The notes beneath the pieces are model-generated. The model did not search any database, had not been told where the DNA came from, and saw only the letters and a program-made list of their open reading frames with translations. A DNA stretch of 64,000 bases from Escherichia coli (GTDB lineage Bacteria; Pseudomonadota; Gammaproteobacteria; Enterobacterales; Enterobacteriaceae), in NCBI RefSeq assembly GCF_002854065.1, contig NZ_CP024147.1. One strand, 5' to 3'. Shown piece after piece: positions 7,277 through 58,893 of the stretch. The position numbers were made by a program, and so were the translations under genes. How positions within the stretch are numbered: position 1 is the first letter of the stretch; every line of letters starts with the position of its first letter.

Positions 7277-7708
7277 TTATTTGCCGCGCACCAAAGGCAA
7301 GTTTTCGCCAGCCCAGCCAGCGACGCCTTCTTTCAGCACGAATACTTGCGCAAAACCAGCTTTCGTCAGTGCGTTTGCAGGCTCCTGGCACTGCATGCCA
7401 GAACCGTCTACCACGATAACCGGTTTGTCTTTGTGCTTCTCAAGCTCACCAACATTGTTGGCTTTGATTTCGCTCGGCAACAGATTAATAGAACCTGCGA
7501 TATGGCCTTTACGGAAGTCATCACGCTGACGTAAATCCACAACCACAGCGTCTTCTTTGTTGATCAGACGCGTAGCTTCACCACGACTAATCACCTTCAC
7601 TTTCGAGGTCAGGCTCTTAAACGTAGTCACAAGAACCGCCACCAGTAACGCGATCCAGGCGATACTCAGTATGGGATGACGGCCAACAAATTGCATAATT
7701 TCTTGCAT
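7277..7708 (-). CDS. yibN: Rhodanese-domain inner-membrane protein
   Basis: ORF track 7277..7720; start trimmed to [12 protein letters not shown] (recall); single TM plus rhodanese domain. Confidence 0.88.
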
Positions 7709-55879: not shown

Positions 55880-55915
55880 GGGGATGTAGAAACTCAAGGA
55901 AGTAGCTATAATGCG
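55880..55915 (+). promoter_or_regulatory. Putative selC promoter (-10 TATAAT with GC-rich discriminator)
   Basis: tataat at 55907..55912 followed by gcgccccgcc; about 20 bp upstream of the mature tRNA 5' end. Confidence 0.4.
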
Positions 55916-55933
55916 CCCCGCCTCCATGTAGCA

Positions 55934-56028
55934 ATCGAGGCGCGGAAGATCGTCGTCTCCGGTGAGGCGGCTGGACTTCAAATCCAGTTGGGGCCGCCAG
56001 CGGTCCCGGGCAGGTTCGACTCCTGTGA
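55934..56028 (+). tRNA. selC: tRNA-Sec (selenocysteine, UCA anticodon)
   Basis: 95-nt sequence ggaagatcgtcgtctccggtgaggcggctggacttcaaatccagttggggccgccagcggtcccgggcaggttcgactcctgtgatcttccgcca; long variable arm, anticodon loop cttcaaa. Confidence 0.97.
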
Positions 56029-56674
56029 TCTTCCGCCAAAATGCCTCTTCTGACGTTCTCCAATCCCTTGTAATACTGTCAATCCAGAGATTTTCTACTG
56101 CTCAATATTCAATCGGCTTCAGGAATACCTGATCAAAGGTTTTGTGATGGACGATGAGCGACTGAAGAATCCGCCTGTCGGTTCTTCTGTCCTCGAACGC
56201 ATCCGCGATATTCGCGCCAGCATGCGCCGTGTTTATTTGCAGGTGATTTGCCCCCCTGCTGACTCTCAGCCAACTGTATCGCCATTAAGGTGAAGATGTT
56301 GTTTTACACGCTTCTGCACACCCTTTTTTATACGACTGTTCTATTCCTTTAACAGCTGGCAAAAAAACTGACCTATAAACTTCACCAATAATCAGACTGC
56401 CATTAAGATTAATTTGTTCATTTAATATATCAAATCAACTTGTTTTATTTTTACTATCAAAAATAGCTCATTGCCTTACTATAATTAATATATAAATTCG
56501 GTGATTAATTCTTAACATGCTTTTGCTAATAATCTCAATTGCTGGCCCTATAATATTGCGCTAGCATTGTTTTCTGGTTGTATCAGCGATACTCAAAAAT
56601 TCTTAATACAATACTCATTCGACTGGTACTTATTTGTAACTCAGTTATATTTTGTCGCCCGGTGATTCAGAAGA

Positions 56675-57859
56675 ATGCAAAAAACGGCTACCACTCCATC
56701 AAAAATACTTGATCTCACTGCCGCGGCATTTTTACTTGTCGCCTTTCTGACGGGTATTGCGGGCGCTCTCCAGACTCCCACCCTAAGTATATTCCTCGCA
56801 GATGAACTGAAAGCCCGTCCTATAATGGTAGGTTTTTTCTTCACCGGTAGCGCTATTATGGGAATTCTGGTCAGTCAATTTCTGGCAAGGCACTCCGATA
56901 AACAAGGCGACCGTAAATTACTGATTCTGCTATGTTGCTTATTTGGAGTGCTGGCCTGCACGCTTTTTGCGTGGAATCGCAACTACTTCATTCTCCTCTC
57001 AACGGGCGTACTTCTGAGTAGTTTTGCTTCTACCGCAAACCCGCAAATGTTCGCCCTCGCCCGTGAACACGCCGACAGAACAGGCCGTGAGACGGTCATG
57101 TTCAGTACATTTTTACGTGCTCAGATCTCGCTTGCCTGGGTTATCGGGCCACCGCTCGCTTATGAACTGGCAATGGGATTTAGTTTTAAAGTGATGTATC
57201 TCACCGCTGCCATCGCATTTGTTGTTTGCGGGCTGATAGTCTGGTTGTTTTTGCCATCAATACAAAGACATGTTCCTGTCGTTACCCAACCCGTAGAAAT
57301 TTTACCCTCCACCCATAGGAAGCGGGATACGCGGCTACTTTTTGTGGTCTGTTCAATGATGTGGGCGGCGAATAATCTCTACATGATAAATATGCCGCTA
57401 TTTATTATTGATGAACTGCATCTAACCGATAAACTGGCTGGAGAAATGATTGGTATCGCTGCCGGTCTGGAAATTCCGATGATGTTAATCGCAGGCTATT
57501 ACATGAAACGTATTGGCAAGCGACTATTAATGATCATTGCTATCGTGAGTGGAATGTGTTTTTACGCCAGCGTACTCATGGCGACGACTCCGGCAGTTGA
57601 GCTGGAATTGCAAATTCTTAACGCCATCTTCCTTGGTATTCTCTGTGGTATCGGCATGCTTTATTTTCAGGACCTGATGCCTGAAAAAATAGGCTCTGCG
57701 ACAACGTTATATGCAAATACTTCACGCGTCGGCTGGATTATCGCCGGCTCTGTTGACGGAATTATGGTTGAAATCTGGAGCTACCACGCGTTGTTCTGGC
57801 TGGCGATAGGGATGTTGGGTATTGCGATGATTTGCTTGCTGTTTATTAAAGATATTTAG
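56675..57859 (+). CDS. setC: MFS sugar efflux transporter
   Basis: ORF track 56675..57859 (394 aa); 12-TM MFS translation; located about 650 bp downstream of selC as recalled for setC (yicK). Confidence 0.92.
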   Translation: MQKTATTPSKILDLTAAAFLLVAFLTGIAGALQTPTLSIFLADELKARPIMVGFFFTGSAIMGILVSQFLARHSDKQGDRKLLILLCCLFGVLACTLFAWNRNYFILLSTGVLLSSFASTANPQMFALAREHADRTGRETVMFSTFLRAQISLAWVIGPPLAYELAMGFSFKVMYLTAAIAFVVCGLIVWLFLPSIQRHVPVVTQPVEILPSTHRKRDTRLLFVVCSMMWAANNLYMINMPLFIIDELHLTDKLAGEMIGIAAGLEIPMMLIAGYYMKRIGKRLLMIIAIVSGMCFYASVLMATTPAVELELQILNAIFLGILCGIGMLYFQDLMPEKIGSATTLYANTSRVGWIIAGSVDGIMVEIWSYHALFWLAIGMLGIAMICLLFIKDI

Positions 57860-57969
57860 CTCACCAGTCTGGACTAAGAAAAATCGGCGTGGCGCAAACA
57901 GAGCCATCCTCGCCATTTTTGCTATCATGCCTGCATACATAAACGACAAAACAGTATGCAGAGGGAAAA

Positions 57970-58893
57970 ATGGGTTCCACCAGAAAGGGGATGCTGAACG
58001 TTCTGATTGCCGCCGTGTTGTGGGGAAGTTCAGGGGTCTGCGCGCAATACATCATGGAGCAAAGCCAGATGTCGTCGCAGTTTTTGACTATGACGCGTTT
58101 GATATTCGCCGGTTTGATTCTGCTGACGCTGTCATTTGTTCATGGCGATAAAATTTTTTCTATTATTAACAATCACAAAGATGCCATTAGTCTGCTGATT
58201 TTTTCCGTGGTTGGCGCGCTAACCGTACAGCTCACCTTTTTACTGACCATCGAAAAATCGAATGCTGCCACGGCAACGGTGTTGCAATTCCTCTCACCGA
58301 CGATTATCGTCGCCTGGTTCTCACTGGTACGTAAATCGCGTCCGGGCATTCTGGTTTTTTGCGCTATTTTGACATCGCTGGTCGGGACTTTTTTATTGGT
58401 GACACACGGTAATCCGACGTCATTATCGATCTCTCCTGCCGCGTTATTCTGGGGAATTGCCTCGGCATTTGCTGCGGCATTCTATACCACCTATCCCTCA
58501 ACGCTGATTGCCCGCTATGGCACGTTACCAGTCGTCGGCTGGAGTATGCTGATTGGCGGTCTGATTCTGTTGCCTTTTTATGCCAGACAAGGAACAAACT
58601 TTGTCGTTAACGGCAGTTTGATTCTGGCGTTTTTTTATTTGGTGGTCATTGGTACATCTCTGACATTTAGCCTGTACCTGAAAGGAGCACAATTAATTGG
58701 CGGTCCAAAAGCCAGCATTTTAAGCTGTGCAGAACCATTAAGTAGCGCGCTGCTCTCTTTGCTGTTGCTGGGGATCACGTTCACATTGCCGGACTGGCTG
58801 GGAACGCTGCTGATTCTGTCATCGGTAATTTTGATTTCAATGGATTCCCGTCGCCGCGCCAGAAAAATAAATCGTCCAGCGCGGCATGAGTGA
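57970..58893 (+). CDS. yicL: DMT/EamA-family inner-membrane transporter
   Basis: ORF track 57970..58893 (307 aa). Confidence 0.92.

Follow-up and report, generated by a model that had tools for sequence, protein, structure and literature searches.

A known rhuM pseudogene fragment between selC and setC of Escherichia coli is left over from past gene turnover at the selC hotspot

The selC-setC interval and its empty attachment site

In the window, which is the whole 64-kb stretch of Escherichia coli DNA analyzed here, the tRNA-Sec gene selC is followed by a spacer and then by the sugar efflux transporter gene setC (Table 1). Positions 55900-56700 were 100% identical to E. coli strain 100416, and the RefSeq annotation of the 100% identical genome lists yicJ, tRNA-Sec, a rhuM pseudogene, setC, and yicL only. 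The end of yicJ lies upstream of selC on the minus strand, and yicL starts at position 57970. The spacer measured 636 bp (56039..56674), which agrees with the roughly 650 bp of non-coding-looking DNA that the original prediction had noted ahead of setC. An Rfam scan of the region returned tRNA-Sec only. The GC content was 27-28% at 56300-56600, and this AT-rich stretch is presumably the control region of setC; the route by which setC is transcribed was not evident from the sequence of positions 56300..56600.

Table 1. Coordinates of features between selC and the end of setC
Feature	Position	Strand	Evidence or remark
selC, tRNA-Sec (UCA)	55944..56038	+	ARAGORN; Rfam RF01852, 83.8 bits; RefSeq annotation
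Attachment-site region of present-day selC islands	56015..56053	.	Single copy in the window; boundaries estimated from BLAST match ends
Non-coding flank, attachment site to gene fragment	56054..56116	.	Without RhuM homology
rhuM pseudogene fragment, 54 codons, corresponding to residues ~121-185 of the 345-aa RhuM	56117..56278	+	PGAP; tblastn; Pfam PF13310
48-codon ORF, from an internal Met of the rhuM fragment to a TGA past the homology	56147..56293	+	
Poly-C tract, C6 in the window and C5 in other strains	56251..56256	+	DNA alignment, 13 sequences
AT-rich non-coding stretch 5' of setC, presumed setC regulatory region	56294..56674	.	Regulatory role presumed
setC, sugar efflux transporter gene	56675..57859	+	Annotation

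No integrase or other island gene was found in the RefSeq annotation of the identical genome, in which setC is the only gene between selC and yicL. When the last 26 nt of selC were searched against the 64-kb window with up to three mismatches allowed, the 26-mer matched itself alone; a blastn-short search of the same window with a 61-nt query across the selC 3' end returned only chance-level matches of 8 to 10 nt, and no degenerate att repeat or attR-like repeat was found in the window. The claims that selC is followed by neither an integrase gene nor a direct repeat of the tRNA 3' end were thus upheld, and the claim that the site is unoccupied also held in the present-day sense, in that the junction between selC and the spacer is contiguous. 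Among the features by which a tRNA-linked island is recognized, an integrase beside the tRNA and a direct repeat at the far boundary were both absent from the window, and a strain-variable segment of atypical composition was present (the block 56054..57940, with its low GC content at 56300-56600). This variable, atypical block points to past turnover and not to a current island. Because the window holds no attR-like repeat, it is the gene fragment, and not a repeat, that testifies to an earlier occupant.

In strains that carry an island at selC, the match to the window at the right junction began at 56015-56018 (TTCGACTCCTGTGATCTTCCGCCA...), and the matches at the left junction ended at 56053 or at about 56040. 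The attachment site of known selC islands, including LEE, PAI-I of strain 536, SHI-2, and the CP4-like and P4-like elements, lies at the selC 3' end and is the same as that of the window; unlike these islands, however, the window lacks an integrase, a direct repeat, and any island genes. Between the attachment site and the rhuM fragment on its right lie 63 nt, and in about 1100 genomes inserted DNA separates the fragment from selC, which places the fragment outside the modern insertions. Examples of such inserted DNA were a CP4-like island ending in DUF4942 (locus L003) and an element with a P4-like primase (locus L013).

The frequency of each state was taken from 5426 complete E. coli genomes. 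A contiguous selC-fragment junction (55950-56120, at least 80% cover) was present in 2492 genomes. An empty selC site is the commonest state in the species. The spacer (56060-56670) was found in 3618 genomes and setC, at a coverage of at least 80%, in 3721; setC and the fragment co-vary as one block in about 3600 to 3700 genomes. An arrangement with an intact rhuM gene was found in a further state, represented by 845 genomes.

Identity and decay of the 48-codon ORF

The ORF within the spacer exists as originally described, with an ATG at 56147, a TGA at 56291-56293, and 48 codons (49 when counted from a GTG at 56144), and its ribosome binding site is indeed weak, consisting of an AAGG Shine-Dalgarno sequence 7 nt 5' of the ATG. 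Its description as an orphan with no homology failed. The ORF peptide matched the Pfam family PF13310 (Virulence_RhuM) with an E value of 3.4e-6 and a score of 27 bits over profile positions 61-98 of 252; the score lies under the 33.7-bit gathering score because just 38 profile positions remain. In a tblastn search of the window with the intact RhuM protein WP_001280585.1, residues 121-185 aligned to 56117..56278 with 68% identity (E value of 3e-20) and in-frame gaps of 8 and 3 codons. At the DNA level, positions 56117-56191 were about 96% identical to intact rhuM over 75 nt; beyond 56191, the alignment contained a 24-nt deletion, a second well-matched block extending to about 56244, and a 9-nt deletion, with the similarity fading by about 56275.

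The same segment is already known as a pseudogene. PGAP annotates 56117..56278 as a pseudogene, 'rhuM', missing the N-terminus and the C-terminus, and the K-12 MG1655 pseudogene yicT (b4653; NC_000913.3 3836425..3836556) corresponds to positions 56147..56278 of the window, with 95.5% identity over 292 nt of the region. Like yicT, the segment in the window lies between selC and setC, has the same sequence, and shares the start ATG of the ORF. Relative to the window, the K-12 allele has a small number of substitutions (R23H in the ORF), together with a TAA stop in the RhuM frame four codons 5' of the ATG, a position at which the window allele is open. A literature search on yicT and b4653 found nothing relevant.

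By similarity, then, the segment belongs to the RhuM family, but the complete domain of about 250 positions, which spans aa 70-323 of the intact protein, is lacking, since both termini are missing. The fragment is homologous to the family but retains only 54 codons, has two internal deletions, and has no accompanying island. Since only 54 of 345 codons are left and the Pfam profile aligns at just 38 of its 252 positions, the fragment cannot act as a RhuM protein, and we infer that it is without function. The ORF is very probably just the open part of an internal fragment of a rhuM gene, that is, of a known, annotated pseudogene, and not a gene. As a feature already catalogued, it matters little in itself.

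The length of the ORF says nothing in either direction. Among 2000 dinucleotide-preserving shuffles of the spacer, 78% held an ORF of 48 codons or more, so length cannot count as evidence. An antisense ATG ORF of 50 codons on the minus strand (56133..56285) was longer than the 48-codon ORF, and it was likewise at chance level by the shuffle test. That ORFs of this length are expected by chance in the spacer would suit a reading in which the spacer is plain non-coding DNA and the ORF a chance open frame without ancestry. The homology to RhuM, however, is significant at both the protein and the DNA levels and is collinear with the intact gene that other strains carry at this locus, and so a frame without ancestry has next to no probability; the Pfam match, the tblastn match, and the DNA alignment refute it.

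Frame conservation was assessed in an alignment of 13 sequences, comprising the window, K-12, ten further genomes picked at regular intervals along the similarity ranking, and a single metagenome contig. In six of the 13, an A-to-T change at 56135 created a TAA stop in the RhuM frame, just 5' of the ORF. The C6 tract at 56251-56256 was C5 in six sequences, a length change that shifts the frame of the last ~12 ORF codons, and five of these six had a 46-aa ORF with an altered tail; in such protein variants the tail reads ...LLTLSQLYRH in place of ...ADSQPTVSPLR. In one sequence, a 1-nt deletion near 56195 left an ORF of 32 aa. In total, stops and frameshifts were present in 7 of the 13 sequences, so that the RhuM frame is not intact across strains, and the ORF measured 48, 46, or 32 aa, with neither frame nor length conserved. 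PGAP flags the fragments of other strains as 'internal stop' or 'frameshifted', public protein calls at the ORF site are 43 to 101 aa long and end in any of three C-terminal tails, and at least 1000 contigs carry the mid-ORF frameshift form. A protein homologue search with the 58-aa fragment matched mainly short E. coli ORF calls, not full-length relatives. The first ~34 ORF codons (MDDERLKNPPVGSSVLERIRDI...) were intact in 12 of the 13 sampled sequences, and the substitutions among the 13 sequences (about 5 synonymous and 4 non-synonymous) were too few to prove neutrality or to measure constraint.

These data bear on whether the ORF could encode a working small protein that was domesticated from a piece of RhuM or arose from it as a new gene. 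The ATG with its weak AAGG sequence, the intact N-terminal ~34 codons in 12 of 13 strains, and the retention of the fragment in about two thirds of E. coli genomes are compatible with a coding role. The C-terminal third, however, changes frame at the poly-C tract in 6 of 13 sequences, and the frameshifted form on at least 1000 contigs breaks the frame in mid-ORF. Furthermore, the ORF does not combine a length above chance with a recognizable promoter and ribosome binding site: a scan of the spacer for sigma-70-like consensus sequences found no promoter-like site on the plus strand, and the length is at chance level. The K-12 curators and PGAP both call the locus a pseudogene, only 38 of 252 domain positions are present, and no yicT or b4653 literature was found. 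A functional small protein is therefore highly improbable. The original prediction had left the choice between a remnant and a small protein and had proposed frame conservation as the test; the remnant is borne out by the rhuM homology and the annotation, and the small protein is not supported, as the frame is not conserved given the poly-C and mid-ORF frameshifts and the upstream TAA (n = 13).

A terminator scan of the spacer returned a single weak hairpin at 56279-56293, no more than shuffles give, and the promoter scan likewise gave nothing beyond the shuffle level. Judged from the sequence, transcription of selC may read through into the ORF, since no terminator-like site separates the two.

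Intact rhuM genes beside selC

An intact rhuM gene occupies the same locus in other E. coli strains. In strain DS566, a gene encoding the 345-aa RhuM protein WP_001280585.1 (Pfam domain at aa 70-323, E value of 4.7e-118) begins 52 nt after selC, and the order in DS566-type genomes is selC, intact rhuM, a degenerate copy of the selC 3' end, a gene for a 165-aa hypothetical protein, and yicL. The degenerate copy (locus L002, ~7341-7370) is accompanied by 13 nt of flank and has a 4-nt deletion. The 165-aa hypothetical protein had no match in Pfam, NCBIfam, or PADLOC. The DS566-type genomes lack both setC and the AT-rich spacer, and their homology to the window resumes only at 57941, which defines 56054..57940 as a replaceable block. 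L002 6140-8433 is the alternative selC-yicL block that takes the place of window positions 56054..57940 in the 845 genomes. The 63-nt flank at 56054-56116 showed marginal similarity to the flank after the selC-3' repeat of DS566, with 2.8% of shuffles scoring as high.

A longer form of the fragment was seen on a metagenome contig (locus L014, 79-384; protein P0004), which carries a 101-aa ORF 5' of setC. In this ORF, the truncated 3' part is the same, but residues ~75-120 of a different, longer rhuM allele precede it as an in-frame fusion. The fusion could have arisen by recombination of an island-borne rhuM with the fragment, or it could be an older, longer form of the fragment.

A scan of one genome per species, with the intact RhuM as the query, yielded 80 loci with 66-98% identity. 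In 26 of the 80, tRNA-Sec lay upstream on the same strand; other tRNAs were found at only two loci, both Leu-CAA. At 16 loci the gap between selC and rhuM was 150-900 nt with no integrase between them, and these loci included Proteus, Morganella, Providencia, Photorhabdus, Hafnia, Pantoea, Raoultella, Enterobacter, Huaxiibacter, Pseudescherichia, and Erwinia. Amino acid identity did not track phylogeny, with values of 87% for E. albertii, 87% for Erwinia, 89% for Citrobacter, and 79% for Zhongshania. In the species scan, a selC-3' repeat directly after rhuM was seen in Pseudescherichia vulneris only. There, a 22-nt copy of the selC 3' end with 2 mismatches (locus L037, 9136-9157) lies ~110 nt after rhuM, so that the repeats bracket a 1.4-kb islet containing rhuM only, like that of E. 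coli DS566.

The arrangement in E. albertii is of the DS566 type, except that the short selC-rhuM spacer has taken up a truncated integrase and a DUF4942 gene. In E. albertii NBRC 107761 (locus L022, 6249-9028), these form a collapsed island, made up of a 266-aa integrase piece and DUF4942, and the rhuM gene downstream of it appears to be full-length. The island showed no att repeat, on a contig that ends within rhuM.

Origin of the parent gene and its meaning for the hotspot

Very probably, a RhuM-family gene once stood directly 3' of selC, where E. albertii and the 845 E. coli genomes still have it intact. In the lineage of the window, rhuM lost both ends, leaving a 162-bp internal piece with two internal deletions. 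The remaining piece, followed by AT-rich DNA and setC, is drifting, with stops and frameshifts that differ among strains. Incoming islands land between selC and the fragment, and the attachment site (56015..56053) is empty in the window.

How the parent gene came to lie beside selC can be read in two ways. We consider it on balance likely that it arrived as cargo of a selC-targeted mobile element and was not an old resident; rhuM would then have been carried repeatedly by elements directed to selC, and the fragment would be the scar that one of them left. The degenerate selC-3' repeats that bracket rhuM in DS566 and P. vulneris suggest such an origin, as do the tRNA-Sec linkage at 26 of 80 loci, the identities that do not track phylogeny, and the presence of rhuM in SPI-3, the island at selC of Salmonella (PMC3680342). 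Against mobile cargo, an attR-like repeat is missing from the window, neither a repeat nor an integrase was seen within 8 kb in most species that have rhuM beside selC, and the 87% nucleotide identity between the E. coli and E. albertii rhuM genes is compatible with vertical descent within Escherichia. In Salmonella, the gene order within SPI-3 described by Blanc-Potard et al. in 1999 reportedly places rhuM next to selC, which is also where the parent gene of the E. coli fragment sits.

The other reading makes the parent gene an old neighbor of selC in Escherichia or the Enterobacterales, destroyed when the setC segment arrived or by local deletions. It would explain why rhuM is the first gene after selC, 150-900 nt away, in the same orientation and with no integrase between, in 16 species from about a dozen genera, why the genes downstream of it in Enterobacter ENT03 are ordinary transport and regulatory genes, and why the selC flank is common to E. 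albertii and E. coli of the DS566 type, with the start region of rhuM matching too. It accounts poorly for the degenerate selC-3' direct repeats around the gene in DS566-type E. coli and P. vulneris and for identities that depart from phylogeny, with close relatives in Zhongshania, Shewanella, and Vibrio located away from selC. In addition, presence and absence vary among E. coli strains, and the family has been described as cargo of islands and defense neighborhoods (PMC3710099). Long residence at selC is the less likely of the two readings but a serious alternative, and arrival with a mobile element remains the preferred account of the parent gene.

What the earlier occupant may have done is suggested by its relatives. 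Anantharaman et al. proposed that RhuM is a toxin domain of restriction-modification/PrrC neighborhoods and that it is often fused to DOC (PMC3710099). In E. coli B, a representative of the PADLOC candidate system PDC-S05 with a Virulence_RhuM domain reduced T7 and T5 plating by about 1000-fold (PMC12881386). The intact selC-adjacent RhuM of E. coli matched PDC-S05 end to end (E value of 3e-173) and is a candidate defense gene, whereas the window has a dead fragment only; with 54 of 345 codons kept, the fragment is not expected to give phage defense. The intact RhuM, the fragment, and the DS566 hypothetical protein had no match among the NCBIfam models, and a sequence search for a solved structure of a RhuM relative found none.

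The fragment is an already known pseudogene that past gene turnover at the selC hotspot left behind, and its interest is that of a history marker: the 'unoccupied' selC of K-12-like strains bears the scar of an earlier occupant from a family listed as a phage-defense candidate, and everything between selC and yicL, with setC, can be replaced as one block. The strong linkage of selC and rhuM across the Enterobacterales might, though with low probability, reflect a functional tie of a candidate defense gene to the selC integration hotspot. It is very unlikely that the fragment, or its first ~34 codons, has been kept for a role of its own, whether as a RhuM-core peptide or as homology for integrase-free recombination of rhuM elements (compare the in-frame fusion at L014).

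Other RhuM loci in the species scan stood out by their assemblies. Serratia sp. DD3 had eight RhuM loci on four contigs of one assembly (L033-L036 and L055-L058), in identity classes of 82% and 78%, which could represent assembly redundancy or real multicopy carriage. Short contigs from metagenome-assembled genomes labeled Sphingobacterium and Bacillota (L044 and L047) carried an enterobacterial-type selC followed by rhuM and are probably mis-binned.
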